DNA of 58,606 bases from a virus. A program made the translations under genes and the position numbers. Shown one piece after another: positions 1-58,606 of this stretch. The notes beneath the pieces were generated by a model that worked only from the letters and a program-made list of their open reading frames with translations, had not been told where the DNA came from and did not search any database. Numbering within the stretch: the stretch's first letter is position 1; each line of letters starts with the position of its first letter. The DNA is taken from positions 1-58,606 of IMG/VR virus record IMGVR_UViG_3300043478_000020; one strand, given 5' to 3'.

Positions 1-127
1 TTTACTAACGCTTGCAGAAGGCAGGATAGTTGAGACGGCAGCTCTACCCTACGGTGATAGGGTTTCTCCTCGGGTTGTATATCCGAGTCAAGGTCAAACA
101 GTCGTAACTGAAAAGGAGCTAGAATCG
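1..127. repeat. terminal direct repeat, copy 1 (identical to 58480..58606)
   Basis: Read directly: the first 127 nt (tttactaacgcttgcag...aaaaggagctagaatcg) recur exactly as the last 127 nt. Nt 1..33 duplicate the 3-prime end (FTNACRRQDS*) of CDS 58294..58512. Confidence 0.9.
111..126 (+). promoter_or_regulatory. ribosome-binding cassette AAAAGGAGCTAGAATC, copy 1
   Basis: AAGGAG Shine-Dalgarno 8 nt upstream of GTG 127. The identical 16-mer recurs at 248..263 and, within the terminal repeat, at 58590..58605. Confidence 0.6.
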
Positions 128-7275: not shown

Positions 7276-8412
7276 ATGGCAGATTTGGTTGATGTGATTG
7301 GCGGCGCAGTCGATGCCGCATGGGAGGGTGGGAATGCCGACGAATCTGGGTCAAGTGATGGCGATGCATTGGGGTCAAGTGCGGAGAATGACACCAGCGA
7401 TTCAAGCGAATCTGTGGGCGGAGGCGGCGTTTCTGAGGGAACTGGAGAAACAGGAGGTGATTCAGAAGGGTCCGCAACTGATGCTGCCGCTGGAGTATCA
7501 GGAAGCGTTTCAGACGATACCGCAGCCGCTAAAGGGACAGCTAAACCTCCCGTTCTAGACGAACTCGATAAAGAGCTAGAAGCCGAGGGCATCAAAAAGC
7601 ACTCCGATGCGACCCGCGAGAACCGTATTCCCTATTCTAGAGTCAGGAAGATTGTTGAAAACACGAAGAAACGGCTGAGTGAGGCGCATACTACTGCTCT
7701 TTCGACGAAAGAAACTGAATATCGTCAGTACAAGACAAAAGCCGACCAACTTGACCTTGTAGATCGCATGATTGCAACGGATGACGATCGCTACATGCGA
7801 ACGCTAGCGATTTTGCACCCGGAAAAGTACAGCAAATACCTAAATAGAGAGCCGGTCGCAGCCAAACCCGCTACCGATCCCGACGAAGGTAAGCCGCAAC
7901 CCGATTATAAGTTCGATGATGGCACCTTCGGCTATACCGATAAACAACATCAGCGATTGATGGAGTGGTATGGGGAGAAGGCACGGAAACAAGCCGTCGC
8001 CGAGGTTGAACAGCGGTTCAAGCCGTTAGAAGACCGTTTTAAGAGCGAGGAAACGAATCGTCAACTCCAGCCTCTCATCAACGCACAACTCGCACAGGCT
8101 CGTAAGGCGTGGGGTAAGTATTTCGAGGACGACTATAAGAAAGGCCAGTCTGGGCAGTCAGAAATTATAGCATTCATGGCCCAGAACCCGGATGTGGAGT
8201 TTCATGCAGCGGTTGCCATGGTGCTGGGGCCAAAGAAGGAAGCAGAATTGGCCGCTGATCGCACCAAGATTCGTGAGGAAGTGCATGCGGAACTCAATGC
8301 CCGCCCGCATGCGGTTCAGAGACTGGTGCCGGGATCGAAGAGGCCAGTAACTGAATCATCTGGTGAGCGAACCCTTGAAGATGTGATTCGGGAGTCGATC
8401 GCAACGCTCTAA
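7276..8412 (+). CDS. putative scaffolding protein
   Basis: Lies between portal and capsid genes. Acidic low-complexity N-terminus and a long charged helical remainder. Confidence 0.5.
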   Translation: MADLVDVIGGAVDAAWEGGNADESGSSDGDALGSSAENDTSDSSESVGGGGVSEGTGETGGDSEGSATDAAAGVSGSVSDDTAAAKGTAKPPVLDELDKELEAEGIKKHSDATRENRIPYSRVRKIVENTKKRLSEAHTTALSTKETEYRQYKTKADQLDLVDRMIATDDDRYMRTLAILHPEKYSKYLNREPVAAKPATDPDEGKPQPDYKFDDGTFGYTDKQHQRLMEWYGEKARKQAVAEVEQRFKPLEDRFKSEETNRQLQPLINAQLAQARKAWGKYFEDDYKKGQSGQSEIIAFMAQNPDVEFHAAVAMVLGPKKEAELAADRTKIREEVHAELNARPHAVQRLVPGSKRPVTESSGERTLEDVIRESIATL

Positions 8413-8419
8413 CTAGATA

Positions 8420-8450
8420 AGTGGCACGATTCTTGACAGGTCGTGCCACT
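8420..8450 (+). terminator. hairpin after the scaffold gene (10-bp stem, 11-nt loop)
   Basis: AGTGGCACGA (8420..8429) pairs with TCGTGCCACT (8441..8450). Confidence 0.45.
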
Positions 8451-8462
8451 CCCTTGTATCAT
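8433..8462 (+). promoter_or_regulatory. sigma70-like promoter candidate upstream of the capsid gene
   Basis: TTGACA (8433..8438), 18-nt spacer, TATCAT (8457..8462). The -35 element lies in the loop of the hairpin. Confidence 0.4.
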
Positions 8463-8630
8463 GAAGTCACAGTGTAGATGGTTACTGTCATGAACCATTC
8501 GTCGTTCGACCCTGCTCCTTCGTAGCTCCAGTAGGAACTACCCGTAGCCACGGTGATTGGCCTTTCCGGTAACTTGCTCCCCGTATAGTGGGCATCGAAT
8601 AACGGTTACTCGCGTAAAGGTGGCATCACT

Positions 8631-9572
8631 ATGGCTCAGCCCAATCCCTCAATTAGTCAAATGGTCGCTGTTTCCTATCCGGCAGTGCTTGCTGAGATGC
8701 GGAAAGCAGCAAATCAGTGGTCCGAATCGGCGTTCATGAAAGCGTTGGAGAAGCATGGTGGCATCGATCACCGTTCGCTTGGTCCGACCATCGAAGCACC
8801 CCTTGATTATCAGCGCAATCCCGGTGCGGCATTCCTGAGTTCGGAATTGCAGGAAACGTCGATGCAGAAGACTGAGGTGGTGACCTCGGCATCCTTCACT
8901 CCTGCTGAAATGTCAGTGCCGATTGTTTGGTCGAAGCGGGATGAAGTGCAGAATCCGGCTCCGAACCAGAAGATCGCCTTGGTCAAAACGCTCTTGGAAA
9001 ACGGCATCAACTCTCACGATGACATCATCGAACAAGCCCTCTTTGCGACTTCAACGAACGGTTTCTTGGGTCTGCCGACCCATATTCCGACTTCGGGTCA
9101 GGGCAGCGACGGAGGTATTGATGCCGTCACGTATCTGTTCTGGAGAAACCAACAGGCCACCTACGTCGATGATACCGACATTGAGGCCGGGTTCACTACG
9201 GTGTTCAACGCCTGTGCGAAGGGTAGCGGCGCAAAGCTGATGCCCACGCTGATGGTCAGCGACGGTGCGACGAATGCACTGTTTGAGGGAACCCAACAGG
9301 CGCTTCAGCGTTGGTCGAATACCGACGAGATGAAGGCGGGGTTCAAGTCCCTCAAGTTCAAGAACGCGGACTACGTCTTCAGTCAGTACGGCACGACCAC
9401 GGTCTACTTCCTCAACCCGAAGAACTTCACGTTGGTGGTTTCCAAGGAGTACTTCCGGGATCGCGGTGACACGCAAGAAATCCAGAACGCCAACGGCTTC
9501 GTGACGAAGATTTACTCGGCGTTGCAGACGGTGACGAACAACAAGTCCAGGCTCGGTTGCGTCCACCTGTGA
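8631..9572 (+). CDS. major capsid protein
   Basis: 313-aa ORF after the scaffold gene, followed by a strong terminator. Has a helix-then-glycine-loop segment (LVKTLLENGINSHDDIIEQALFATSTNGFLGLP) typical of HK97-fold coat proteins. Confidence 0.7.
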   Translation: MAQPNPSISQMVAVSYPAVLAEMRKAANQWSESAFMKALEKHGGIDHRSLGPTIEAPLDYQRNPGAAFLSSELQETSMQKTEVVTSASFTPAEMSVPIVWSKRDEVQNPAPNQKIALVKTLLENGINSHDDIIEQALFATSTNGFLGLPTHIPTSGQGSDGGIDAVTYLFWRNQQATYVDDTDIEAGFTTVFNACAKGSGAKLMPTLMVSDGATNALFEGTQQALQRWSNTDEMKAGFKSLKFKNADYVFSQYGTTTVYFLNPKNFTLVVSKEYFRDRGDTQEIQNANGFVTKIYSALQTVTNNKSRLGCVHL

Positions 9573-21889: not shown

Positions 21890-23800
21890 ATGGCGTCAAG
21901 TCCTGGCGATCTGGTCATTCCAACACTGAGAGGAGGTCTGAACGATACTGATCCGCCCCATCTCCTAGAGAATGATCAGTGTACCGTGGCTATGAATGTA
22001 GAGTTCTTTCATTCGAGCATTGGTGAGCGGAGGTTTGGGTGTTCAGCGTTCGATATCACGGGATCGGGACTGGCTGATGAGGATGTGATTGCCTTCCTGG
22101 GCGAGTGGTTCCCTGATGATGATATTGCCCATCCTGAGATATGGGCACTGGGCGTGACCGTAGGTGTCTCTACGACCTTAACCAAGCGTGCCCCGGCTGG
22201 ACCCTCTTGGTCAACAGTCGTGCCCGTAGACCCCATAGATACGACAGCACCTGATGTCTATGGGATGAATACGCAGATTCTGAATGCCAAGCAGTTCTTC
22301 GCCTATCGGAGCAATGTCGATCGCCTCCACCTGTGGGATGGAGATACGCTGCGACGAGCAGGGTTGGCGGAACCCACAGCCCCACCTGTGGTGACAGATA
22401 CCGGATCAGGCTCCTTTGCTGATGATCGCTATTATCGCATCCGCTATGTCAAATTGAGCGGTTCAGGCGAGGTACTGGTTCGTAGCGAACCCTCAGAGGA
22501 AGTGACGTTTGAGCCGAGTGGGAGCGGGTCTGGGGCGTCGATTACTCGCCCTGTGCTGCTTGGCGAGAGCGAGACGCATTGGGAAGTGGAAGCGTCGTCT
22601 GATGATGAGAATTGGTACAGAATTGCGACTGTGCTGGATTCGACCACGACCTATACTGACGAAACCGATCTGACCACTGATAGTTATGCCGATGTTGGCA
22701 CATTGTCGGAGGATATCGGCAGCTACCTGTTGCTGCCGTCTGCGAAATATTTGACTATTGACGATGATAGGTTAGTCTTTGCTGGACACTGGACTGACTC
22801 CACCAAGAAGTCGTTGGTGGGCTGGACTCCCGTGAAGAACGATCCCGGCAAAGGTAACGACGAACGGCTCCCCTTAGATTTCGACAATACGGTCGAACTG
22901 GATACCACGGATGAAAGCGAAATTACCGGACTCAGTGCCTCCACGAATGGCACATGGTATGCCTTTAAATGGGGACATATCTATAAATTTACACGGTTGT
23001 ATACTGGTGCGCTCCGAGCGTACCAAGTGTTTAATCTTAGCAAATCCCACGGAGCCATATCTGGCAGCATTGTTAGCGGTGCTGACGAAAATGGTCGATC
23101 CTGTATCTACTTCTTAGATCCAGCGGTTGGACCCATGAGACTGGGAGCAGCTGGACTCCAGCGAGTGCTCGGATTAAGCACGACATGGAAGAGGGTCAAC
23201 GCGACCGCGAGTATTGCGGCACGGGCACTGTACTACTCGGATAAATGCCAAGTCCATTGGTGGGTCGCGGCAGATGGGGAGGATACACCCTCGCTAAAGA
23301 TCATCCTTCAGACGGATGAAATCCAATCCGAAGGACGTGGTGCGAGTCGAGGGTTCTCGCTGGCTGATGGGCGGATTGCAGAAGCGTATGCCGCAACCAC
23401 GATTCATGAACTCATTCTCAATGATGAAGGAAATCAAGCGATATCTAACCGCCCCTTTATCGGCCTTCCAACCCCGAACTGTATCCAGCGCTGCGATATT
23501 GAAAATACCGACGATGGACAGGCATATGTGGCTCGTATCAGGACTAAAGCCTTCTTTCAAGCAGGATTGCTGAACCAGTGGGGAGCTATGGCAGGGGCGT
23601 TACTGGCCGACGCAAACGCGAGTGCTTCGGTGCGTGTGGCGCTGATTGGCGATTTTGGGCGCTATACTGCTGACACAAAAGCCATTACCACGTCTCTCGC
23701 TCCTGTCGGGACTGAAGAGTTCGTGATCAAGAAGTTTGACGATCTGAGTCTGTCAGAAGCCACAGGCATTCAGATCGAGTTCTCGGATGTGGGCGTATGA
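21890..23800 (+). CDS. large virion protein (putative tail tube/nozzle)
   Basis: 636 aa, contiguous with the preceding gene. Assigned by size and position only. Confidence 0.35.
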   Translation: MASSPGDLVIPTLRGGLNDTDPPHLLENDQCTVAMNVEFFHSSIGERRFGCSAFDITGSGLADEDVIAFLGEWFPDDDIAHPEIWALGVTVGVSTTLTKRAPAGPSWSTVVPVDPIDTTAPDVYGMNTQILNAKQFFAYRSNVDRLHLWDGDTLRRAGLAEPTAPPVVTDTGSGSFADDRYYRIRYVKLSGSGEVLVRSEPSEEVTFEPSGSGSGASITRPVLLGESETHWEVEASSDDENWYRIATVLDSTTTYTDETDLTTDSYADVGTLSEDIGSYLLLPSAKYLTIDDDRLVFAGHWTDSTKKSLVGWTPVKNDPGKGNDERLPLDFDNTVELDTTDESEITGLSASTNGTWYAFKWGHIYKFTRLYTGALRAYQVFNLSKSHGAISGSIVSGADENGRSCIYFLDPAVGPMRLGAAGLQRVLGLSTTWKRVNATASIAARALYYSDKCQVHWWVAADGEDTPSLKIILQTDEIQSEGRGASRGFSLADGRIAEAYAATTIHELILNDEGNQAISNRPFIGLPTPNCIQRCDIENTDDGQAYVARIRTKAFFQAGLLNQWGAMAGALLADANASASVRVALIGDFGRYTADTKAITTSLAPVGTEEFVIKKFDDLSLSEATGIQIEFSDVGV

Positions 23801-24621
23801 GTACCCCTCAAGCGACCACGAATCGGTTGTTCGCAGCACCCGCTGCTGCCGACCCTGTCACACTTACGCCGAATGTCGTCGCGTGGGCGAACAGTGCATG
23901 GGTGGAGTTAATCGCAGCAGCAGACGCTGATTTAGTATTGACCAGTATCTGTGTCGGGGCCGATACCAGTGCTGCCTATGCTGCCTTTGAGATAGATATC
24001 GCTACAGGCGCTCCTGCATCGGAAACGGTAGTCACGACCTTCAGAGGGGTCTTTAAGCGCACCTACTTCTGCGGACCGGGGTATATGCCGTGCCCCATAC
24101 CGCTGGACAACATTGCCACAGGCGCACGAGTGTCCGCACGGTTGCGGAAAAGTAACACCCGCACCGACCCGTGGACGGTATCAATGTCGTACTACAAGAA
24201 GGCTATTACGGGCACGTTACTAGTCACAGCTAAACCTCAGAAGTGCTTCCCCTCTGCTGCCGCCAGCTTCTCTGTTCCTCTCGGTGCTGGTACATGGGCG
24301 AATAGCTCGTGGTCACAGATGATTGCATCAACGGCAACCGCTATCGTACTCGTGGGGGTGTCTATTGATACCAGTGCGTTTAGTTATGATGAATTTGAGT
24401 GTGATTTGGGGATTGGGGCAGCAGCGTCGGAAGTCGTGTTTGCAACCTTTAAAACTCAAGTAGCAGGACCAGGTGGCGGGGGTGGACCGAACTTTGTACC
24501 CATCAACACGCCCTACGACTCTATTGCTTCTAGTAGCCGTATTGCTGTACGAGGTAGAGCCGCGAATGTCTCCTTCCGTGAAATGAACATCGCCTTATCC
24601 TATATCGAGAAGCCGCTATGA
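23797..24621 (+). CDS. virion protein with two copies of a WANSxW...E(I/C)D(I/L)xxGA domain
   Basis: Internal duplication read from the translation. Overlaps both neighbouring genes by 4 nt. Confidence 0.45.
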   Translation: MSTPQATTNRLFAAPAAADPVTLTPNVVAWANSAWVELIAAADADLVLTSICVGADTSAAYAAFEIDIATGAPASETVVTTFRGVFKRTYFCGPGYMPCPIPLDNIATGARVSARLRKSNTRTDPWTVSMSYYKKAITGTLLVTAKPQKCFPSAAASFSVPLGAGTWANSSWSQMIASTATAIVLVGVSIDTSAFSYDEFECDLGIGAAASEVVFATFKTQVAGPGGGGGPNFVPINTPYDSIASSSRIAVRGRAANVSFREMNIALSYIEKPL

Positions 24622-25742
24622 GTATTCTCAACACAGCGGCGCTCAAAGTCTTCCCCACATCGGCGTCGGGGATTGATGTTACGTCTGGGCCAAGTACAAA
24701 TACGTTTGGCGCATGGACGGAAATTGTCCCAGCTAGCTCATTTGCCTCACCTGTGCAAATGGCGGGATACATGATCCAAGGGTATGCGGCATCAGCCACC
24801 TTTGAATTACAGGTGGGTACTGGCACGGCTGGTAACGAAGTCGCTATCGCGAATATCCCGCAAATCTCCAGCAACGGCAACGAGAACATCCAGATCACTA
24901 TGCTGCCCACGGCGATTAACCTGGGATCAGCGAATGCCCGTATCTCGTTCCGCATGCGGCATGCGAATGCGAATACGACCCTGCCGTTTGCGATGTTCTA
25001 CTATCTCAGTTCAACCGCGACGACTGCGGCTGATGAAATGTCGTACTTACCCTATGGCGTATTAGGAGTCAATCAAGGTACGGCAATCGTTCCGAACACC
25101 ACTCCGTGGGCGAACTCCAGTTGGACTGAACTTAGCCCGAGCCTCGCATCCGGCACTCGAATCATCGGTGTCATGCCCGCACTCAACTCCTTCTATGTGA
25201 GTATGGAGTATGAGTTGGATATCGGGACGGGGGCACTGGGGGCGGAGACGGTTATCACCACGATTCGGAACAACTTTGCGCCTGTAGCTATTCAGGGGTT
25301 AACGAATGTCTATCTTCCGGCAGTCTATACGCTTCCCGGCACATCTAGGGTATCGTATCGGTTGCGGAAGTCGGGGACTGATCCTTCGACGTTTTATGTC
25401 TTTCTGATCTACCTACCGGCGTCGGATCTGGTCGCGGATATCGATAGTATTGGTTGCGGGCTGACCACGAACCAGATCCTCGCGTTTGGCACCAACCTCG
25501 ATATCGCGTCTGATATCTCCGTGACCCGTGACGGGGATGAAGTCGAGTTCTCCGTCACAATGGCAACAGCGGATCAACTTCAGATTGACATTCCTGATTA
25601 TGTAAATGGCGAATACTGCGTGGCTCTTGGCGAAGGGACGCCCGTCTGTGCGGAGCTAGAGTGTGCCCCGCCACAGGTGACGGCTGCGAACTGGCGACTC
25701 CACCGCTTTGACCTCAAGCAGAGGCTGGAGCAGACCAGCTAA
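24618..25742 (+). CDS. virion protein with two further copies of the same domain
   Basis: FGAWTEIV...FELQVGTGTAGNE and WANSSWTEL...YELDIGTGALGAE. Confidence 0.45.
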   Translation: MSILNTAALKVFPTSASGIDVTSGPSTNTFGAWTEIVPASSFASPVQMAGYMIQGYAASATFELQVGTGTAGNEVAIANIPQISSNGNENIQITMLPTAINLGSANARISFRMRHANANTTLPFAMFYYLSSTATTAADEMSYLPYGVLGVNQGTAIVPNTTPWANSSWTELSPSLASGTRIIGVMPALNSFYVSMEYELDIGTGALGAETVITTIRNNFAPVAIQGLTNVYLPAVYTLPGTSRVSYRLRKSGTDPSTFYVFLIYLPASDLVADIDSIGCGLTTNQILAFGTNLDIASDISVTRDGDEVEFSVTMATADQLQIDIPDYVNGEYCVALGEGTPVCAELECAPPQVTAANWRLHRFDLKQRLEQTS

Positions 25743-37956: not shown

Positions 37957-38306
37957 TACTTCTTCTCATCCGGTACCGTCACCAATTCATAGGCTTTGGT
38001 CGGTCTCGTCACCATGGCTCTATTATAGATCGACAAATCTCCGCCCAAATCGATGAACTTCTCCTTGTCGAAGGTGTCGCGGGTGCCAGCCACGAGGGTG
38101 GTTTTGAAGCCTTCCAGACCAACTGAAGGCACGCCCAGGTCGTCTCGGATACCAGCAATTTTACCCTTGACAGCATCCATCTGTACCTTGATGGCATCAG
38201 CCCGTTGTTTCAGATGTTGGTACTGCCGGAACTGGGAGAGCAGTTCCTGTCGCTGCTTCACCGTTAACTCGACTTCAGTCGTTTGTGTGGTCGTGATAGT
38301 GGGCAT
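37956..38306 (-). CDS. hypothetical protein (116 aa)
   Basis: ORF track entry. Start-stop coupled on both sides. Confidence 0.55.
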   Translation of the reverse strand: MPTITTTQTTEVELTVKQRQELLSQFRQYQHLKQRADAIKVQMDAVKGKIAGIRDDLGVPSVGLEGFKTTLVAGTRDTFDKEKFIDLGGDLSIYNRAMVTRPTKAYELVTVPDEKK

Positions 38307-41065
38307 CAGAATCCTCTCATTCCTTCAGGGTTGTACCAATCCGCAATATCCTTCTGTACCATTGGGGCCATATTCCAGCCCCATTCGCCCTCGATCAGTA
38401 GGGGCACACTGAAACCTTGCGGTACCTGTGTCATGGCGCAGGTCATAAGTTCATGCAACTCCTGTTCCATACCCTCTTCACACTCAATTTTGATACAATC
38501 GTGGACTTGTAGCAGCGGCTCAATCCATCGACCGTCCTTCCAGTAGGGCACCAGGATGTCCTCGTATACGATCTTTTCGGCCTGTTTCATGATATACGTG
38601 GCCGATTCCTGAATAGGTGTAGAGAATGCGAAACGCTCTGCTTCCTCTCGCACTCTAGCGTTGTGACTGCGTATACCACCGATATACCGAATGCGCCCAC
38701 TGAGGCACCGGATGAAACCGTGTCGCCGTGCTTCGGCTTTTCGTTCCTCCATATACGCAGCGACACCTTCATATAGCGCCAGTGTCTCATCCAGCCACCG
38801 TTGTGCGGTATCTTCATCGGCGTCTACTCCATTCTTCCGAAGTTCAACAGACAGCCCCTTACACGTCATCCCCATCGGAATCCCGAAGTTAATAGCCTTG
38901 GCAGGTAGACGATGACGGTGCTTATCCTGTAGGGCAGGTTTGACCCCGAAGATGCGTTCAGCTAGTGCCGCGTGTAGGTCGATCATGCTTCCATCTGGGT
39001 TTCGCTTCTCGCCTCTAAACACAGCTAACATGATGGGGTCTTGACTGAGATGGGCTAATCCCCTGAGTTCGACCTGGGATTCGTCCCACTGGCAGATGAC
39101 GTGGGGAATGGTTCTATGCGGTAGTATTCCCGCACCAGATAGTCGTGATGCTGCTGTATGGCGTCGTCCATCAGTTGTCGTATGCGAGCCAGCAACCCAG
39201 CCTCGTTTAAAGTAGGGGGCAAACTTGCCATGTTCTGGTTGTGCCAGAACATTCGGTTCTGATGCAGCCAGTCTACCTGTAACCACTGATGTGGTTCGAA
39301 AGGTCGCATGGATTCGTCCATCAAAAGGGTATCGGTTAACAAAGTCGGGGAGTCGGTCCACGAACGTGTTCTTGAGTTTGTACGTTTCTCGATATTCCCG
39401 AACGGTAGAGATAACTGGATACTCCGGGTGTTCATGTTCCAGGGCTTCGAGTATTTTGTCATTGGTTGATCCTCTGCCAGATTCAGTCATCTTGAGGGGT
39501 TCGAGGTTCAGCTTATCAAATAGATAGGCGGCGACCTGATCCCCTGAGTTCGCGTTGAACCCTACCAGCCCAGTCGCTTCATCCAGTTCTTGACGCAGTC
39601 GATCAATCTCACTCTGAAGGACTTCCGAGAGGGTGGCGAAATGCTCAAGATCCGGGAGCAGCCCCACCTGCTGCATGCGATCGATGAAGGGGTAGGTGGC
39701 GAGTTCAAGGTCGTAGGTTCCTGACAAACCCATGCTATTGATTTGTTGACGGTATTCAGGAGCAAGCCGTGTAGTGCCATCCGCGTCCCGGCATCCGTAA
39801 TTAACGGCAACGGGTCGTTCAACATAATCAAGTGTCGCGTGGGGCAGCGGTCCAAGTCGATGGTACCCGGCAACTTGGATATCTTCAAGTTGATCAAGCC
39901 AGAGGCTGTGTGGGCGCTTAGATTGTAATACCCGCCCTGCGGCTTTGTGGAGGGGCGACTTGGGTAAGGTTGGGACTTTGCGTATCTTCCGTCCTGGGAG
40001 AACCTTCCCTTTGGCGTTGGTGTATGGGGTGGTCTGGAGTCGGATGAGTTCGGCATACTGTTTGTCCTCGTAATCTGCCTGTTCAATGTCAAACAACCAC
40101 GTCAGGTAATCTCTGGCTAGGATGTTCGCCGTATCCCCGATGATATCGGTATACTCGTCCATCTTCATGCTGCAATAGCGTAAGCAGCCAGCCTTCAAGC
40201 CTTTCGGTACTAGCTGCAACAGATACGCCATCACCATTGTGTCGTCGTATTTCAACCCACTAATGTCAATGTCCAGAACCCTGAGCATCCCGAGATCGTG
40301 AAGCGCCGAATGGAATACGAGGACAGGGCGTATTCGACGGAGATGTCTACTGAATCTTCTGAGGAGATTTCGATCATTCGCAGAAATGAGATAGCCTGTT
40401 CCCGGCTCATACGAGTACTGCACACTCCAAGGGCATCTTGTCCAGCCTTCTGTGTCGATCGAGAGTGCTGTTTCTGCATTACACCCAGCCAGGGATTGGT
40501 CGAGTGATCGGGCGTTTGTGATTTCTTCATACTGAGGTTCCTTATAGGGATCATCAAACAGCAGTCGGGGTTGAACATTTCCCTCGTAGTATTCGGCTAA
40601 CTGGTGAAATCCCGCCACGACGTGTGGACTCATTTCTGAATTATGAGCACCAATAGCCGGATGCACTACGGGAAATATCGTGACTCGCTCAGGCGGACAG
40701 GGATACTTATCACAGGTATCGGGCATCCAGAAGGGGATGCCTTCGCAAGACTCCATATCCACATCACCAAGGAAGTATCTCGTCGCCTCTCGCCCCAAGG
40801 TAATGATGATCTTCGGTAAGACTTCCTGTAGTTCAGTCTGTAGATACGGCTCACTTACCGCATAATCAGCAGAGGTATAGCTATAATCCTTCCCACCCGG
40901 CTGACGCAGTAAGCTGGTGACAAACACATCACTCCGGTCAGGAAGATCCATCCCGTTGAAGTAATGATCCAGTTCCCTCAAATCCTTGCGAAACCCTGGC
41001 TTCTCGGAGATGACCATGGTTTCACAAGGTCGAGGCCCGACACCATGGATGAGGGTATCGCTCAT
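38306..41065 (-). CDS. polA: DNA polymerase, family A, with N-terminal UDG-superfamily (SPO1-type) domain and 3-prime-5-prime exonuclease domain
   Basis: N-terminus has VISEKPGF and VVHPAIGAH (UDG family 4-like). Exo motifs are SIDTEGW, HSALHDLG and YGCRDADGT. Pol motif A is DESQVELRGLAHLSQD, motif B is RLPAKAINFGIPMGM, motif C is LLQVHDCIKIE. Confidence 0.9.
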   Translation of the reverse strand: MSDTLIHGVGPRPCETMVISEKPGFRKDLRELDHYFNGMDLPDRSDVFVTSLLRQPGGKDYSYTSADYAVSEPYLQTELQEVLPKIIITLGREATRYFLGDVDMESCEGIPFWMPDTCDKYPCPPERVTIFPVVHPAIGAHNSEMSPHVVAGFHQLAEYYEGNVQPRLLFDDPYKEPQYEEITNARSLDQSLAGCNAETALSIDTEGWTRCPWSVQYSYEPGTGYLISANDRNLLRRFSRHLRRIRPVLVFHSALHDLGMLRVLDIDISGLKYDDTMVMAYLLQLVPKGLKAGCLRYCSMKMDEYTDIIGDTANILARDYLTWLFDIEQADYEDKQYAELIRLQTTPYTNAKGKVLPGRKIRKVPTLPKSPLHKAAGRVLQSKRPHSLWLDQLEDIQVAGYHRLGPLPHATLDYVERPVAVNYGCRDADGTTRLAPEYRQQINSMGLSGTYDLELATYPFIDRMQQVGLLPDLEHFATLSEVLQSEIDRLRQELDEATGLVGFNANSGDQVAAYLFDKLNLEPLKMTESGRGSTNDKILEALEHEHPEYPVISTVREYRETYKLKNTFVDRLPDFVNRYPFDGRIHATFRTTSVVTGRLAASEPNVLAQPEHGKFAPYFKRGWVAGSHTTTDGRRHTAASRLSGAGILPHRTIPHVICQWDESQVELRGLAHLSQDPIMLAVFRGEKRNPDGSMIDLHAALAERIFGVKPALQDKHRHRLPAKAINFGIPMGMTCKGLSVELRKNGVDADEDTAQRWLDETLALYEGVAAYMEERKAEARRHGFIRCLSGRIRYIGGIRSHNARVREEAERFAFSTPIQESATYIMKQAEKIVYEDILVPYWKDGRWIEPLLQVHDCIKIECEEGMEQELHELMTCAMTQVPQGFSVPLLIEGEWGWNMAPMVQKDIADWYNPEGMRGF

Positions 41066-41382
41066 TACATGATGTTGCGGGCAAGAGGTTGCTTTGCTTG
41101 GGGTGCGTCAGAGGTCGCAGCGGTCGTATTCTCCTGCACGCCCGACACATCCTTATAGTCGTGCCATACCCTGAATCCTCGCTTGAACAACGGCATAAGT
41201 GCATCTGACACCATCGGGTGGGGAACAAAAGTCTCAAACAGCAGCACTCCAAACTCAACCGATACCCGATGGGCTTCCACCATTTCCGTATCGTCCTTCG
41301 TCTGTGACTTCTGCACCAGAAACAGCCGCAGGGCTGGAATAATCGTCAGAGGCGGCTCCGTCTCGGTATCACTATCGCTCAT
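41065..41382 (-). CDS. hypothetical protein (105 aa)
   Basis: ORF track entry. Acidic N-terminus. Confidence 0.5.
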   Translation of the reverse strand: MSDSDTETEPPLTIIPALRLFLVQKSQTKDDTEMVEAHRVSVEFGVLLFETFVPHPMVSDALMPLFKRGFRVWHDYKDVSGVQENTTAATSDAPQAKQPLARNIM

Positions 41383-42158
41383 GTAAACTCCTTCTGGATG
41401 AATGCCACAATATCCTCTGCATGTTTCAGGCCAATCCTGCGTTTACGCCCACGAGGGTCGGCAGTACAAACTTCCGCCCATTGTGGTGCACTTGCCGCTA
41501 CCGCCTTCTCCAGACTCCCAAAGTAATCCAACACTGCCTTACTCGTGAGACGCCCGATGTGCGGAAAGGTGGACAACGTCTTGCGCTGGTCGCTGATCGG
41601 CAGGATAGAGGTCGCGGTATAGATGCCCAGATGAGACTTATGCTGATCCATGTCAGTATCGGTCCAGGTCTGATACAGCGCAATGAGCGTCTGGATGCTG
41701 TCAGCCCTGCTGGTCGTCCAGTAGGGATTCATCCCGCCGCAGATATGCAGTACATTCACCCGTTTCAGCAACTCATTGACCGTCATCTGGCCTTCTAAGG
41801 GTACGAGCCGACTCAGCGCGCTACGACGAAGGAGAGTACCAGACGAATCATAGATCAACTCTCCCTCAATCATCAGATACGAGTGGTCGAACAGAGGGCG
41901 CATACCGGGCACCTGATGACCCTGCAACCGCTGTGTGCGAAGGGCCTGCACCAGTTCTCTCAGTTGTTTGAACTCAATCCCTATTTGAACAGGAGCACCC
42001 CCAACCCCTCGACCTTCAAAGGCGATATCGCCGAAATCCAGCCGCACCAGTTCGACCGGCAACCCCTGCCGACGTAAAGGTGCGGCCAGATCCTTCGAGC
42101 CATCCCGATCGTCTACTAGGATCATAGTGGGACAATCCTGTAGCCGAAGTAGCCACAT
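41379..42158 (-). CDS. ERCC4 (XPF/Mus81)-type structure-specific nuclease with C-terminal helix-hairpin-helix
   Basis: VDDRDGS, FGDIAF, IGIEFKQLRELV (ERK-like) and LMIEGE. C-terminal FPHIGRLTSKAVLDYFGSLEKA. Confidence 0.6.
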   Translation of the reverse strand: MWLLRLQDCPTMILVDDRDGSKDLAAPLRRQGLPVELVRLDFGDIAFEGRGVGGAPVQIGIEFKQLRELVQALRTQRLQGHQVPGMRPLFDHSYLMIEGELIYDSSGTLLRRSALSRLVPLEGQMTVNELLKRVNVLHICGGMNPYWTTSRADSIQTLIALYQTWTDTDMDQHKSHLGIYTATSILPISDQRKTLSTFPHIGRLTSKAVLDYFGSLEKAVAASAPQWAEVCTADPRGRKRRIGLKHAEDIVAFIQKEFT

Positions 42159-46525: not shown

Positions 46526-47710
46526 TTACGGACAGACCTTCTGCCATTCCACAGTAATCGGTTTCACTGAGTCAGCAGGTAAATCCATCACTGGCCCCGC
46601 ATGCCTCACCGCAATCCCCGTTTGTTGCTGCAAGAACGTGACCACGCCAAGTTGTGAGAATTGTGTCAAATCATTATCCCCAACATCAGCAGTCGGCCCG
46701 ACCACTATTCCAGACGGCTGGAACTCAAACGTTACTTGTTCATGACGCTGATAGATCGAATGATCAGGGTCAGACAGGTGATACTGGTCGCCTGTGATCG
46801 CCGAGATTCTGTATTGTCCTGCTGGGATACCTCCAAATCCTAGCACAACGGGCGGCAGTTCGCTAGGGAACCAGGGGTTCGGGTAGCCAGCCGGAAAGGT
46901 CGCCAACCACGACGTTTGGCCTGGGAAGAAGTAGAACCCACTACCCTTGGTAGCATCACACACAGGCGGCACTGGCGGCAGTGGTGGCGCAGTCGGAGGG
47001 GTAGGGGGAGGGGGCGTTACAGGTGGAACTGGTGGTGTCGGCGGAACTGGTGGCACCGGAGGCACGACCGGCGGTACAGGCGGTGCTGGAGGCTCTGTAG
47101 GAGGCACAGGAGTCGTCGGAGGGGTAACGGGCGGCACAGGCACCGTTGGGGGCGCTGGCGGCACTGTAGGCGGTTCTGGCGTGCTTGGCGGGGCAACGCA
47201 CTCCCTGGTGTAGTACACCCCCGGCGCATCCCAGAAGTAATTCGCCAGTGTACTCAGTGTCGGTCCTGAAGGTGCAGTCTCCCCGACAATCTTGTAGATA
47301 TCTGTCTGAATCTTGCAGAACTTGGTGTCGTCAAAGGCTAGCCACATCTCTGCCGTTACCCCAGGATCAACGCATGCGACATTCGACCCCTGAATGAACA
47401 CCTGATTATCCTCACTCTTGGTGGCATCCCATGCGACCGTCCAGAAGCATGCCTTCACAGTGGTCGTGTTGACGGTTGTGGTGTGACCGATGGAGGGGAA
47501 GGTTGAACTCGCCTTGCTGGTCTTACCTGTCCGACTCGCTTCCTTTGCTGGAGAAACATTTGGGTCAGCATTTACGGTTAGCGGATTCCCCTTGGAGATA
47601 TCACTACAGCCGGTAAACGCTACGGCTAGTGACAGCCCTAGCACCAGCAGCAGGATACTGAACATGATCGTCGTGATACGGTCGCCGATACGTGTCTGTT
47701 GCTCTCTCAT
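46526..47710 (-). CDS. lipoprotein with ~75-aa polyproline linker between two domains
   Basis: Signal plus lipobox LSLAVAFTGC. Central PPTVPPAPPTVPVPPVTPP...PPLPPVPP. Confidence 0.6.
   Translation of the reverse strand: MREQQTRIGDRITTIMFSILLLVLGLSLAVAFTGCSDISKGNPLTVNADPNVSPAKEASRTGKTSKASSTFPSIGHTTTVNTTTVKACFWTVAWDATKSEDNQVFIQGSNVACVDPGVTAEMWLAFDDTKFCKIQTDIYKIVGETAPSGPTLSTLANYFWDAPGVYYTRECVAPPSTPEPPTVPPAPPTVPVPPVTPPTTPVPPTEPPAPPVPPVVPPVPPVPPTPPVPPVTPPPPTPPTAPPLPPVPPVCDATKGSGFYFFPGQTSWLATFPAGYPNPWFPSELPPVVLGFGGIPAGQYRISAITGDQYHLSDPDHSIYQRHEQVTFEFQPSGIVVGPTADVGDNDLTQFSQLGVVTFLQQQTGIAVRHAGPVMDLPADSVKPITVEWQKVCP
46960..47195 (-). repeat. Pro-rich low-complexity coding repeat (approximate bounds)
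   Basis: GGN/TGG-rich on the + strand. Encodes (P-P-x-P/V)n on the - strand. Confidence 0.6.
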
Positions 47711-47967
47711 CAGCTAATCTCCTTGTCCCAAGTGATTGATTGATAAAGGAATGTCGGTCCCGATATCGATGTTGACTCGAATAGTGCTTTCTCGATCAAG
47801 TCGTCGTGAGCGTTCAGCCCATTTTGTAGTAACTTTTTAACCAGAGCGAGAATGTCCTCATTGGACATCCGTGTTGCTTGTGCTTCTACCTGCTGAAGTT
47901 CTATCGTAGGAAGGGCTGCGCTTGCTAACGCAATACCGAGAAGTTTGAGTAGTGAACGTCTATCCAT
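47710..47967 (-). CDS. small Tat-signal protein with capsid-protein-like segment (85 aa)
   Basis: MDRRSLLKLLGIALASAALP...VEAQA matches the twin-arginine consensus RRxLLK with an AxA site. ALVKKLLQNGLNAHDDLIEKALF matches capsid residues 116-138. Confidence 0.55.
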   Translation of the reverse strand: MDRRSLLKLLGIALASAALPTIELQQVEAQATRMSNEDILALVKKLLQNGLNAHDDLIEKALFESTSISGPTFLYQSITWDKEIS

Positions 47968-48302
47968 TATTCGCAGTTTTCTGCACGACAGGCACAATGG
48001 TCTTTGTAACAAGCAGACCGACACCTGACGTTATCCTCCACCACCACAGCACTATTCGTGCCATCAGGGTTCTGCTCACAGTGTTTATGACAGGTGCAGT
48101 TATGGTCTGGTGCTGCCGGATTATGCACACAGTTCGACCCCGGTGCCGGTTCCTCGTGATTGGGATTGCCCTCGGGCGGTGACGGAATACCTTGAGCCAT
48201 CATGGTCGGCATCATACACGCTAAGTGCGTCGTTGGCGACATGACCATACCCACACTCACGAACAACCCCAACGACACAATAAATGAAGCAATCTTATAC
48301 AT
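47967..48302 (-). CDS. secreted Met/His/Cys-rich protein (111 aa), possible metal binding
   Basis: Signal-like N-terminus. HLACMMPTMMAQG, HNCTCHKHCEQ and CRSACYKDHCACRAENC. Confidence 0.55.
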   Translation of the reverse strand: MYKIASFIVSLGLFVSVGMVMSPTTHLACMMPTMMAQGIPSPPEGNPNHEEPAPGSNCVHNPAAPDHNCTCHKHCEQNPDGTNSAVVVEDNVRCRSACYKDHCACRAENCE

Positions 48303-48954: not shown

Positions 48955-50472
48955 CTAGAGGTTCGGTACTCCCTCCACAAACGTCAAGTGACTCTTTGCC
49001 CGTGACCGTGCCACATACAGGCAGTTATCCTCTTCGATAGTCCGACCCCTGCGATAGAAACTCTCCTGCAACACGTATACCCGATCCGTCTCCAGCCCCT
49101 TCGCTTTGTGAACTGATGAACACAGGATGGTATCGGCTTCCGCTACATCGGTGAACAACCAATCGATTCTGTTCATCAAGTCGTCGGTCGATTCCGCTCC
49201 CTCCAACAGCATCCGCAGCATGTCCGCTTGATCCCTGGTTTTATCGACCATGTCCAGCCGCCCGTAGGAGGCGAAGCGGGTCACTTGGCTACTCTCCCAT
49301 TGGTCGAGTCGTTTGCTCAGTTCTGGAAGGCTCACAGGCACCTTCCCGCCTACCCCCAGCTTCTTCAGCACATCCTGAATATCGCCCCCGATATCCCGCC
49401 CCTTCATGCGGGCACGTTTGCCCTGCTTCAGCAACCGCAACGTGGTACTCATGAGCGGTGCGTTGATCCTCGACAGGATGAAGTCTCCCGCTTTCGCATG
49501 GGTCAGCACCATATCGAAGTAATCCATGGTGTCTACGACGCCGTCATGATTGTTGCTGTTGGCGACGAAGTCGGGCACAAGGGATTGGCACACAGTGACA
49601 ATGTTTTTCCCGCAGCGGAAGGTCTCATTCAACGGCAATTCCCCGGCATTCAACTGCATCTTGAGCCTATCAATGGAATTGGAATCGGCTCCTCGGAACC
49701 CGTAAATAGCCTGCCTATCGTCCCCCACCACACACATCCGACCCCTGCACACCACCTGTGCCAACTCCAACTGTGCCCCAGTCATGTCCTGCGCCTCGTC
49801 TACCACGACCATATCGAAATCCTTAGCGGTCAAACCCCAGATTAGCGGCAGGTTAATCATGTCAGCAAAGTCGATACCGATATCGTAGGTGGGTTCCTTC
49901 GTGGCTGCGACATCCAGCACCCGTAGCACACTTGCTACAACATAATCCAAGTCAAACTTGCCGAAATCCTGGGGCACACAATCGAAGAACAGCGCCAAGT
50001 CTAACACCTGTGACGCCATTGCTCGTGGAGCCATTTCCCGCACCTTGGTGTGTAGTTTCGTGACCAGTTTCTTGACCCCATCAGGCACATCCAGCCCACA
50101 GACCCTATCCGTAAGGCTCTTGGCTCTGGCGTTGTACTTCGTCACCGGCATGCCGCGCCATTCACGACGAATGTACCGATATCCCAGTGCATGAAGCGTC
50201 GATGCCTCTGCTCCTGTCTTACCCGCCAGCTTCTCATTCAACACTTCGGCAATCGGCTTGTTGAAAGCACAGACCAGAATGTCCTCTTCAGGTGCTCGGC
50301 GTACCCCTTCAATGATGGTGGTAGATTTTCCCGTTCCTGCACGCGCACGCACTACCAGATTGTCATAATCCTGAAACCCCTCAAACCAGTGGAATATGCG
50401 GTCCTGCTGCGGTGCCCACGCCCATTGCTGAACAGGTTCCGCAACGGCTTTGGCAAATCCTCGTGCTCCCAT
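48955..50472 (-). CDS. SF1 DNA helicase (UvrD/PcrA-like)
   Basis: Motif I ARAGTGKST, motif II VVVDEAQD, motif III VVGDDRQAIYGFRGA, motif VI VHKAKGLE. Confidence 0.85.
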   Translation of the reverse strand: MGARGFAKAVAEPVQQWAWAPQQDRIFHWFEGFQDYDNLVVRARAGTGKSTTIIEGVRRAPEEDILVCAFNKPIAEVLNEKLAGKTGAEASTLHALGYRYIRREWRGMPVTKYNARAKSLTDRVCGLDVPDGVKKLVTKLHTKVREMAPRAMASQVLDLALFFDCVPQDFGKFDLDYVVASVLRVLDVAATKEPTYDIGIDFADMINLPLIWGLTAKDFDMVVVDEAQDMTGAQLELAQVVCRGRMCVVGDDRQAIYGFRGADSNSIDRLKMQLNAGELPLNETFRCGKNIVTVCQSLVPDFVANSNNHDGVVDTMDYFDMVLTHAKAGDFILSRINAPLMSTTLRLLKQGKRARMKGRDIGGDIQDVLKKLGVGGKVPVSLPELSKRLDQWESSQVTRFASYGRLDMVDKTRDQADMLRMLLEGAESTDDLMNRIDWLFTDVAEADTILCSSVHKAKGLETDRVYVLQESFYRRGRTIEEDNCLYVARSRAKSHLTFVEGVPNL

Positions 50473-50888: not shown

Positions 50889-51863
50889 TTAATCCAGTTC
50901 CAGGGGTAGTTCCACGTTTGGAGCCGATAACCCCCATAAGCCATTTTCCTTAATGATTTGGCCTGTTTTGACTAGTTCCGAGAAGGATCGATGAAAGGTC
51001 GTTTTTGCGAGGCCCGTGGAACTAAGCCACTCGTCCCAACGCATGGGACCGTTGGCGAGAAAGTCAATAATATGCTTGGATTTCTGCACATTTTCGACAT
51101 CTGTTCGTACCAACACGCAGGAATCCGTATCTGGAACTAGTTCCAGTCGGAATTCCATCGACGGAAAGTGCTCGGCATCCTTCTGCTTGGTACACGCGAC
51201 CTCGACCACGGAACCGTTCTGGGGCCGGGTGACAGAAATCATGGTGTCGGTACCACCCCTGAAGGCGGTGTTGCCCCGCTCGCGTTCCCCATCAAGGCGA
51301 GTGTGGTGAACTGCCAACACCGTTGCCCCGTACTCATGCCTCAACTTATCCAGCCCTGCGATAAACGCTCCCATGTCTTCCTGTTCGTTCTCGTTCCCTT
51401 CGAGGCAGCGAGCCAGAGTGTCAATGATGACCAATCCGGGTGTTTCCTGCAACTCGTTATCCAACCGTTCCATCAAGAGATCCATATCATTGGATTCGCT
51501 CGTGACCGAGATGGATTCGATCAGCCACGCCATGTGGGGGATGTCGGTAATACCACGAGTCTGCATCCAGGCACGGACACGCTTGCTGATGCCCGGCCCA
51601 CCCTCCGCTGCCACGTACAGGCTGTAGCCTTGCCGTACAGCGTTGCCTTGCCACGGGAGGCCCGTCGCTACAGACATGGCAATATCTAGGGCGATAAACG
51701 ATTTAGTGCTCTCTGGAGCGCCATACAAACCACACAATCCGCCTTCTGGCAAGATATTGTCGATGAGCCATTCAGGAGGAGGGAGGGTGAGCAACTCAGC
51801 AGTGCTGTACAACCTCAACGGTCCTGCTGAGGTTAACTGGAAGGCAGAAGGTCGTGAACCCAT
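50889..51863 (-). CDS. RepA/AAA_25-like RecA-fold ATPase (putative replicative helicase or loader) with C-terminal winged-helix-like domain
   Basis: LCGLYGAPESTKSFIALDIAMSVATGLPW (variant P-loop) and VIIDTLARC (Walker B). Confidence 0.6.
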   Translation of the reverse strand: MGSRPSAFQLTSAGPLRLYSTAELLTLPPPEWLIDNILPEGGLCGLYGAPESTKSFIALDIAMSVATGLPWQGNAVRQGYSLYVAAEGGPGISKRVRAWMQTRGITDIPHMAWLIESISVTSESNDMDLLMERLDNELQETPGLVIIDTLARCLEGNENEQEDMGAFIAGLDKLRHEYGATVLAVHHTRLDGERERGNTAFRGGTDTMISVTRPQNGSVVEVACTKQKDAEHFPSMEFRLELVPDTDSCVLVRTDVENVQKSKHIIDFLANGPMRWDEWLSSTGLAKTTFHRSFSELVKTGQIIKENGLWGLSAPNVELPLELD

Positions 51864-58294: not shown

Positions 58295-58512
58295 TGGCGA
58301 TGTTTACGAAACGGCATTACGAAGCGATTGCAGGTATCCTGGCAGCCCATAGGCGTAAGATTCTCGCAGAAGAGGGTAATAGTCCTATCCTATTCAGTAG
58401 CATTCCTGATCTTGATCAGCTTGTACATGAACTCAACTATATGTTCCACCACGACAATCAACGCTTTAAATCGTGGGAGTTTACTAACGCTTGCAGAAGG
58501 CAGGATAGTTGA
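58294..58512 (+). CDS. hypothetical protein (72 aa)
   Basis: ORF track entry. The 3-prime end lies inside the terminal repeat. Confidence 0.55.
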   Translation: MAMFTKRHYEAIAGILAAHRRKILAEEGNSPILFSSIPDLDQLVHELNYMFHHDNQRFKSWEFTNACRRQDS

Positions 58513-58606
58513 GACGGCAGCTCTACCCTACGGTGATAGGGTTTCTCCTCGGGTTGTATATCCGAGTCAAGGTCAAACAGTCGTAACTGAAAAGGAGCTA
58601 GAATCG
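58480..58606. repeat. terminal direct repeat, copy 2 (identical to 1..127)
   Basis: Read directly. Confidence 0.9.

Follow-up and report, generated by a model that had tools for sequence, protein, structure and literature searches.

The locus described here raises the question of how a piece of a phage capsid protein comes to stand behind a putative export signal, and of what use it might be to the phage there. The stretch of DNA analysed (the window) is IMG/VR virus record IMGVR_UViG_3300043478_000020, positions 1 to 58,606, 58,606 nucleotides in all, and its minus strand carries at 47710..47967 a gene for an 85 amino acid protein, MDRRSLLKLLGIALASAALPTIELQQVEAQA|TRMSNEDILALVKKLLQNGLNAHDDLIEKALFESTSISGPTFLYQSITWDKEIS, which we call the mini-protein. 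A preliminary description had proposed that this protein consists of a leader of the twin-arginine translocation (Tat) type followed by a copy of a helical segment of the major capsid protein encoded by the same genome. It is nearly certain, in our judgement, that the mini-protein gene is real and that its product is homologous to the capsid protein. The exapted piece, as placed by structural modeling, would be the strand leading into the P domain together with the amphipathic spine helix α3 of one subfamily of HK97-fold capsids. The whole explanation that we consider best, namely a maintained accessory gene in which a Tat leader is joined to this capsid piece and the product serves as an envelope effector, is a proposition whose chances we regard as evenly balanced.

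Homology to the spine helix of the major capsid protein

The match is centred on residues 41-63 of the mini-protein (47847..47779, minus strand), which are identical to residues 116-138 of the capsid protein (8976..9044, plus strand) at 17 of 23 amino acids and at 47 of 69 nucleotides. The coordinates and sequences on which the preliminary description relied were all correct on re-reading, with the gene on the minus strand, and recomputation returned the same identity; its statement that the six differences in the core are all conservative holds for five of them and fails for a K/T exchange. It had also remarked that the two genes differ at most synonymous positions, and a Nei-Gojobori calculation over the 23 core codons agrees, giving a proportion of synonymous differences (pS) of 0.88, which is saturated, and a proportion of nonsynonymous differences (pN) of 0.16. 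The pair is recovered by BLASTP at E=2e-11, and a tblastn search with the capsid protein against all six frames of the window finds the mini-protein at E=5e-8. The Smith-Waterman score of 103 compares with 28 ± 4.6 for shuffled sequences, and none of 5000 shuffles, of either protein, reached 103 (Gumbel p ~3e-10), which places the similarity far outside shuffled background.

That the partner is a major capsid protein, as had been supposed, is borne out by several lines of evidence. The 313 amino acid product of 8631..9572 (plus strand) scores 140 bits against the NCBIfam model NF033394 (capsid_maj_Podo, cut-off 80), it also matches PHROG 9953, and it is ~26% identical to the capsid proteins of Mx8 and BUCT555. 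An AlphaFold2 model built with 60 homologues (predicted local distance difference test score, pLDDT, 83; predicted template modeling score, pTM, 0.79) has a strand at residues 92-101, a short helix at 102-107 and a long helix at 111-137, and the top structural matches of this model in Foldseek are HK97-fold capsids and encapsulins. This placement in the HK97 fold identifies the modeled helix 111-137 as the P-domain spine helix α3. The segment homologous to the mini-protein family comprises residues 97-143 (8919..9059, plus strand) and thus takes in the end of the strand, the short helix and the spine helix. In solved capsids the spine helix forms a lining on the inner side of the shell, and for SPP1 a contact between the amino end of this helix and the scaffold is reported (PMC6813328). 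The stretch ALVKxLLENGINSHDDxIEQxLF is among the most conserved across 120 capsid homologues, in which N124, H129, D130 and E134 never vary, and D131 and F138 are kept in 117 and 119 of the 120, respectively. The more distant Mx8 and BUCT555 capsids have unrelated sequence at this position, so the motif appears to be specific to one environmental capsid subfamily and not generic to spine helices.

The homology reaches well beyond the core, and it does not depend on the copy in the window. Nine further members of the mini-protein family were found, as set out below, and an hhalign comparison of the mini-protein family with the capsid family gave a probability of 98.6% and E=1e-15, with mini-protein residues 25-66 aligned to capsid residues 96-142. 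Two of these members, P0124 and P0125, align to the window capsid themselves, over residues 88-160 (E=3e-16) and 86-142 (E=1e-12), respectively, which indicates that the relationship holds independently of the window's copy. The capsid strand that precedes the core, VPIVWS, is kept as VPMAWS in P0124 and VPIAWS in P0125, the homology of P0130 likewise extends into this strand (ICWTK), and P0124 alone also continues downstream to capsid residue 160.

The proposal that the mini-protein holds a capsid helix segment, and not merely a generic amphipathic helix, is therefore upheld by the hhalign result and by the lack of the motif in the Mx8 and BUCT555 capsids. A chance resemblance might have been suspected from the spurious return of an ankyrin-repeat protein, P0123 (...LIENGINVNAV...), in the exhaustive search and from weak DEP-domain and ankyrin matches (E ~0.2 or worse) in a profile search of the PDB sequences, which gave no significant match for the family profile. 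Such matches suggest that LLENGI, taken by itself, is a helix-turn pattern of wide occurrence, and they lie far below the family signal; set against the shuffle statistics, the hhalign value and the extension of the homology into the preceding strand in P0124, P0125 and P0130, the chance explanation is refuted, and we put its probability at practically nil.

Only the part behind the leader is capsid-like. BLAST had aligned residues 1-38 of the mini-protein collinearly to capsid residues 78-115, and the idea that the leader is diverged capsid sequence was rejected, since that alignment holds only ~5 identities and since the leader of P0124 and of P0125 is followed by the capsid strand (VP.AWS). 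The leader is thus best read as a module separate from the capsid-like part. With only ~50 of the capsid's 313 residues, no complete HK97 fold and no match to the NF033394 model, the 85 amino acid mini-protein is a derived capsid fragment and not a member of the capsid family. An AlphaFold2 model based on the family alignment consists of helices only, and its most confident element (pLDDT ~85) is a predicted long amphipathic helix at residues 36-64 (47776..47862, minus strand), which includes the core.

The mini-protein family, its leader and its origin

A word-indexed search with the mini-protein returned the query itself only. Exhaustive phmmer searching of 1.84 billion representative proteins found six small proteins that match from end to end, and a profile search added three more, which brings the family to 10 proteins of 61-101 amino acids, all on environmental phage contigs; these are about 10 members among the 1.8-5.8 billion proteins searched, compared with at least 979 protein clusters in the capsid subfamily. 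No family in Pfam, PHROG, NCBIfam or PADLOC covers the mature part. The window mini-protein, P0122 and P0124 found no match by tblastn in 50,697 isolated or deposited phage genomes, so it seems that no cultured phage carries the family. The family profile, when run against IMG/VR, picked up capsid genes, a single unrelated protein with a Tat leader and nothing else; the scan of the GTDB genomes gave one chance-level match of 19 amino acids in an Erysipelotrichaceae genome, and by our estimate ~15 chance matches to the pattern are to be expected. The family is therefore rare, and it is previously undescribed.

All 10 members begin M-(N/D)-R-R-x-(F/L)-L-(K/S/R), followed by an uncharged stretch that usually ends in proline, and all continue after the leader with (D/Q/E)K(I/V)ALV(R/K)(R/Q/K)LL.N(G/A)I..HD(D/R).IE.A(L/I)F; R3, R4, L7, H54, D55, E59, A61 and F63 are invariant. 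The open reading frame is thus conserved, with the same leader and the same capsid-like segment in ten proteins, a point that the preliminary description had left to be decided. Because the N-termini of the family all open with M-N/D-R-R, we prefer the ATG at 47967 as start codon of the window gene over a GTG at 48024. This ATG (47967..47965) shares one nucleotide with the TAA of the upstream gene, which encodes 111 amino acids (TAATG), and the TGA of the mini-protein gene (47712..47710) shares one nucleotide with the ATG of the downstream gene, which encodes 394 amino acids (TGATG) and whose Shine-Dalgarno sequence AAGGAG (47719..47724) is embedded in the last codons of the mini-protein gene. 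Read in this way, the three genes form a translationally coupled block.

The Tat-type leader occupies residues 1-31 (47875..47967, minus strand). Its twin-arginine motif D-R-R-S-L-L-K is formed by residues 2-8 (47944..47964) and is followed by the hydrophobic region (h-region) LLGIALASAALPTI, which has 14 uncharged residues and a mean Kyte-Doolittle hydropathy of 1.99; across the family the uncharged runs are 12-19 residues long with means of 1.9-2.5 (for P0125 a later stretch was picked by the script). The arginine pair is invariant and the F/L-L near-invariant in the 10 members, eight of which match the TAT_signal models PF10518 and TIGR01409 at E<=10, the best at E 1.4e-4 to 2.2e-4. The near-consensus Tat leader reported earlier is in this respect well founded for the family, with the window copy falling below the curated cut-offs. 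The leader end of the family profile also picked out the signal peptides of CueO and PsbU among the PDB sequences, at values that are not significant (E 0.2-0.6). No feature of the family is better conserved than the twin-arginine motif, a strong if indirect argument that Tat targeting matters, and we regard targeting of the mini-protein to the Tat pathway as probable. A possible cleavage site, A-Q-A, is present at residues 29-31 of the window protein; the other members have no conserved A-x-A, only a conserved proline after the h-region, and cleavage of the leader is for this reason uncertain, an uncleaved leader acting as membrane anchor being a possibility.

A Tat-like leader was also seen in a different phage protein. 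The contig L106 (IMGVR_UViG_3300050821_002281) encodes at 8132..8551 a 140 amino acid protein whose leader (MDRRGFLKLLGIGTAAAAVAP) is identical to the window leader at 16 of 32 positions, and whose mature part is unrelated to the mini-protein and belongs to no known family. Phage-borne proteins with Tat leaders may be commoner than is recognised.

In the case of P0130 and P0131, an unsaturated pair, dS (synonymous divergence) is 0.57 and dN (nonsynonymous divergence) is 0.18, and this within-family dN/dS of ~0.3 is one ground for regarding the mini-protein as a real gene under purifying selection. Identical P0122 and P0130 proteins each came from several independent samples. Seven of the other members overlap the stop codon of the gene upstream; the overlap is 4 nucleotides in six of them and, as called, longer in P0131. 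P0122 stands alone after a gap of ~280 nucleotides. These observations bear on the possibility that the locus is a non-functional relic, a capsid fragment, possibly foreign, that arrived by illegitimate recombination and is open and signal-like by chance. The genome does hold another relic-like capsid scrap (7406..7501, out of frame in the scaffold-like gene), and capsid alleles differ synonymously, so that a recent import of a divergent allele could mimic a sequence that is old and selected. Ten independent homologues with the same small size and the same order of leader and helix, the dN/dS value, the recurrence of the same protein in several samples, substitutions shared by the mini-proteins, the exact one-nucleotide overlaps with both neighbours and the distance from every capsid compared all speak against a relic, which we consider very unlikely indeed.

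The distance from capsids also bears on the origin of the family. None of 126 capsids is closer to the window core than 18 of 23 residues, and over a 30-residue core the identities are 47% between mini-proteins, 47% between mini-proteins and capsids and 71% between capsids. Recent import of a particular capsid allele was rejected on these figures, the mini-proteins being as far from each other as from the capsids. Derived states are nonetheless common to the mini-proteins, namely a basic pair after ALV, HDR in 5 of 10 members, and the leader, and these favour the view that the family arose once, from this capsid subfamily, and that its members then diverged independently for a long time, still under constraint.

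Several observations point to movement of the gene between phages. The window gene has a GC content of 0.45 and a GC content at third codon positions (GC3) of 0.44, compared with a GC3 of 0.65-0.70 in the capsid, helicase and 282 amino acid genes (capsid 0.70) and of 0.53 in the polymerase gene, and the GC content of the whole genome is 0.536. The contexts of the other members are phage-like and unrelated to one another: the contig of P0122 has NAMPT, RNA ligase, dCMP deaminase and Endo VII genes, P0130 and P0131 lie directly upstream of a different family-A polymerase, P0126 adjoins a SpoU methylase, and P0127 and P0128 stand in arrays of tiny genes. P0124, on contig L113, adjoins a 54%-identical homologue of the window gene 41379..42158, which indicates a related backbone with the mini-protein gene 5.5 kb away from its position in the window. 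In L096, whose polymerase is 54% identical and which is the sole relative with a readable matching region, different genes take the place of the cassette; a search for the syntenic region with the UvrD-type helicase as bait, in IMG/VR and metagenome scans, found only helicases of 24-37% identity. From the foreign composition, the variable position, the absence from L096 and the unrelated phage contexts, we conclude that the mini-protein gene is probably a horizontally moving accessory gene and not an in-situ duplication. It follows from the low GC3 and the mobile origin that part of the synonymous divergence between mini-protein and capsid genes is a difference in codon usage. The preliminary description had seen in the locus an old duplication kept by selection on the peptide; selection at the peptide level stands, with saturated sites, at most 18 of 23 identities in 126 capsids and a dN/dS of ~0.3, and duplication within this genome probably does not.

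As a separate observation, a small tryptophan-rich protein (…WQWYRR…GGKWQYS…WWK…) is encoded just upstream of the mini-protein region in L090 (1833..2009), L094 (1093..1269) and L112 (91..273), which are the contigs of P0130, P0131 and P0126 and are otherwise different; the likeness of these proteins was judged by eye only.

Possible functions of a putatively exported capsid helix

On a 100-degree helical wheel of the core, L117, L121, I132, G125, V118, A136, H129, L122, I133, I126 and L137 (capsid numbering) fall on a face of ~200 degrees, with D130, E134, E123 and N127 on its flank. A hydrophobic face so wide would oblige the isolated helix to bundle or to dock onto something, and a helix bundled or docked in this way would be a poor substrate for Sec and a natural one for Tat. 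The place of the gene in an operon of the replication module suggests that synthesis of the mini-protein falls in the early or middle phase of infection. The protein would then fold in the cytoplasm, probably oligomerising or binding a partner through the hydrophobic face, and would either pass into the periplasm by export or remain in the membrane, anchored by a leader that is not cleaved. The most speculative step concerns the envelope, where it could, together with the proteins of its two neighbour genes, act as a module for binding that imitates the inner surface of the capsid; the likeliest purpose would be to keep superinfecting phages from entering or to remodel the envelope, in the manner of T4 Spackle and comparable small exclusion proteins of the periplasm.

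The two neighbours of the gene are what make an envelope role the most economical. The upstream gene (47967..48302, minus strand), which is coupled through its stop codon to the start of the mini-protein gene, encodes a 111 amino acid protein that has a hydrophobic signal or anchor at its N-terminus and a mature part rich in cysteine, histidine and methionine (…HLACMMPTMMAQG…CVHNPAAPDHNCTCHKHCEQ…CRSACYKDHCACRAENCE), a composition that suggests metal binding or multiple disulfides. The downstream gene (46526..47710, minus strand) encodes a 394 amino acid protein with a lipoprotein-type signal (…LAVAFTG|CSD), in which a linker of ~80 residues of almost pure polyproline (PPVPP/TPP repeats) separates two domains; in the predicted lipoprotein this stretch appears long enough to cross the periplasm. 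Neither neighbour has a family match in the Pfam, PHROG, NCBIfam or PADLOC libraries. That these cassette proteins might themselves be copies of virion proteins was also considered and was rejected, as the all-against-all BLAST within the window gave nothing of the kind.

Small, early, signal-bearing and largely helical envelope proteins that exclude other phages are well known, among them T4 Spackle (Sp), T4 Imm, P22 SieA, HK97 gp15 and T5 Llp, and their genes are often found beside those of further envelope proteins and differ from one related phage to the next. The mini-protein resembles them in being small, predicted to be envelope-targeted, encoded in the replication module, absent from L096 and elsewhere in L113, which fits this class of protein and does not define membership of it. 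It differs in having no sequence similarity to any of them in Pfam, PHROG, NCBIfam or PADLOC, and the exclusion proteins known to us have Sec signals or transmembrane anchors, not Tat signals, and none of them is derived from a capsid. By analogy, then, an envelope or exclusion role may be suggested, and we hold it to be rather doubtful. The more specific suggestion is that the mini-protein is exported through Tat as a mimic of the spine helix and acts as an effector in conflict between phages or between phage and host, its gene having spread repeatedly; we advance this tentatively, as a possibility of less than even probability. Such an exported mimic may, for example, act in the periplasm as a trap for proteins of incoming virions, whether ejected or internal, or it may saturate a membrane-associated capsid sensor.

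A number of points weigh against an exported envelope effector. The leader of the window protein stays below the curated cut-offs (13.6 bits versus 22.7 for PF10518 and 13.7 versus 16.7 for TIGR01409), the A-x-A site of signal peptidase is not conserved in the family, the AlphaFold2 model of the mini-protein is of only moderate confidence (overall pLDDT 65.6), and export is as yet a prediction. To our knowledge capsids never enter the periplasm, which leaves no obvious ligand there for a helix from the capsid interior. The envelope-protein neighbours are not kept around other members, so that the argument from the cassette is limited to this genome, and PADLOC, PHROGs and Pfam gave no tie to a known exclusion or defence protein, the only match being the sub-threshold one to TAT_signal.

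A different explanation is that the mini-protein is a capsid mimic that acts in trans in the cytoplasm, before or instead of export, on whatever recognises the capsid spine helix. Candidate targets are a capsid-sensing abortive-infection or defence protein, for which it would be a decoy, the scaffolding protein, and capsid subunits of the phage itself or of a competitor, for which it would be a regulator or a dominant-negative; the twin-arginine leader would then tether it to the membrane or to TatBC, or would clear it from the cytoplasm later. Capsid fragments can act in trans on defence proteins, as the T4 Gol peptide does on Lit, and the phage in the window itself encodes the matching capsid. 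The polar residues H129, D130 and E134, invariant in the capsids, are invariant in the mini-proteins as well, which suggests that the same contact is preserved, and in SPP1 the scaffold is contacted by the amino end of the spine helix (PMC6813328). Set against this are D131, near-invariant in capsids and arginine in half of the mini-proteins, the position of the gene in the early or replication module and not with the late genes, and the lack of a match to any known anti-defence or defence family; moreover the RR-x-F-L-K motif and h-region are the best-conserved feature of the family, which argues that export is essential. Taken together, a cytoplasmic mimic seems unlikely.

The same helical face admits an explanation in which the resemblance to capsids has no bearing on function. 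The helix would be a module for oligomerisation, for binding a partner or for binding metal through histidine, aspartate and glutamate, and the mini-protein would either be a purely structural exaptation or would escort a signal-less partner or cofactor through Tat as a hitchhiker carrier. Use of Tat implies a cargo that is folded, oligomeric or partner-bound, the wide hydrophobic face has on helical-wheel reasoning a buried histidine flanked by aspartate and glutamate, and the upstream neighbour is rich in cysteine, histidine and methionine. Hitchhiker export through Tat is established for PaoABC (PMC4273604). No candidate partner is conserved beside the family members, however: all-against-all BLAST of the neighbours at 9 loci led us to reject conserved partner genes, the only common one being the backbone gene in L113, and the genome has no second, complementing capsid-like fragment apart from a frame-shifted N-terminal relic. 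This explanation is in our view quite unlikely.

Among Tat signals and small Tat substrates (PF10518, TIGR01409) the mini-protein is unexceptional in its R-R-x-F/L-L-K motif, its mildly hydrophobic h-region of 12-19 residues, its helix-breaking proline and its small size, for which TIGR02811, the 'formate dehydrogenase region TAT target' of ~66 amino acids, is a comparator. It departs from them in being phage-encoded, in having a mature part unrelated to any known substrate, in lacking a conserved A-x-A and in the sub-cut-off score of the window member. With the motif-bearing subfamily of NF033394 capsids (LVKxLLENGINSHDDxIEQxLF) it shares homology over capsid residues ~88/96-143/160 and the H, D, E, A and F that are invariant in both; unlike these capsids it has no A domain, P-domain sheet, N-arm or E-loop, and hence cannot form a shell, and it has an export leader and, from its gene position, expression with the replication module. 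Biological activity of a small piece of major capsid protein, alone and in trans, is known from the T4 Gol peptide with Lit and from capsid-sensing defences such as CapRel(SJ46) and PifA, and Gol differs from the mini-protein in being part of the capsid gene itself, in being cytoplasmic, in triggering rather than countering defence and in having no export signal. Encapsulins, which are among the structural neighbours of the window capsid, the capsids of gene transfer agents, and Ccm and CpmB of the staphylococcal pathogenicity islands (SaPI) are, like the mini-protein, capsid-derived or capsid-binding and recruited to a new role, but encapsulin and Ccm keep the whole fold, CpmB is an unrelated capsid-binding helix, and none of them is a single capsid helix with a secretion signal. 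We searched the literature that links Tat with phages, capsids, decoys or superinfection exclusion and met with no account of a capsid fragment targeted to this pathway, and the earlier remark that an exported capsid-helix mimic has no known precedent is in keeping with this. We therefore assign the mini-protein to none of the systems compared and regard its family as new, in architecture as well.

If the mini-protein is exported and active, phages can recycle a single capsid helix into a small secreted effector by way of Tat, a pathway for pre-folded cargo, and it would be a natural peptide that presumably binds the readers of the conserved H-D…E face, be they scaffold, internal proteins or an immune sensor. 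This would make a new class of phage accessory ("moron") genes and a testable way into the recognition of capsid interiors, and, should the suggestion of a conflict effector prove true, the first case in which part of a structural protein of the virion has been exapted into a secreted effector. Function aside, the family is a clean case of exaptation of a domain fragment followed by horizontal spread across unrelated phage backbones, and it illustrates how similarity searches within a genome can expose genes that database annotation overlooks.

Genome context and other variation in the structural module

The window has an exact direct repeat of 127 nucleotides at its two ends (1..127 and 58480..58606), which is typical of circular assembly (k=127), and it can on this ground be taken as a complete phage genome of ~58.5 kb. 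It comprises all of a JGI contig of 58,606 bp. The structural module occupies 3-33 kb on the plus strand, with terminase-sized and portal-sized open reading frames, a scaffold-like gene at 7276..8412 and the capsid gene. The replication module, in which the mini-protein gene resides, occupies 34-54 kb on the minus strand and includes a family-A-type DNA polymerase (38306..41065), a methyltransferase, a UvrD-type helicase (48955..50472) that neighbours the cassette and a primase/helicase (50889..51863), all on that strand. Rfam and tRNA scans of the window gave no tRNA genes and no Rfam matches, and promoter and terminator scans of the mini-protein region were uninformative.

Aside from the capsid-derived similarities, the all-against-all BLAST within the window found one pair of related proteins only, the adjacent paralogues 23797..24621 and 24618..25742 (plus strand) of the structural module, which are 33% identical over 112 amino acids (E=1e-10).

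The second capsid-derived fragment mentioned above lies at 7406..7501 (plus strand), in the open reading frame 7298..7558 (frame +2) inside the scaffold-like gene, and reads 'ANLWAEAAFLRELEKQEVIQKGPQLMLPLEYQ'. It is identical to capsid residues 26-61 at 16 of 35 positions (tblastn E=1.6e-4 within the window, shuffle p 1.4e-6), it is closer to the capsid-family consensus (score 86) than to the window's own capsid (74), it is not in the reading frame of the scaffold gene, whose acidic, Gly/Ser-rich N-terminal extension encloses it, and the relatives L108, L109 and L110 lack it. The fragment has the appearance of a frame-shifted relic of a duplication of the 5' end of the capsid gene that was overprinted by the scaffold N-terminus, or possibly an overlapping gene.

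Relatives of the phage show further variation around the capsid gene. In L098 (IMGVR_UViG_3300033067_001508) the capsid gene is split into 7427..7504 (residues 6-31) and 8178..9029 (residues 32-312), with ~670 nucleotides between the parts, which suggests the insertion of an intron or a homing endonuclease in the major capsid gene. In L109 (7264..7791) and L110 (963..1490), close relatives whose capsid is 79% identical, the scaffold and capsid genes are separated by a gene for Endonuclease VII, and in L109 the portal gene is followed by an HNH gene (5322..5843). The window has neither gene at these two positions, and the two nuclease genes of the relatives have the look of mobile elements inserted into the structural module.

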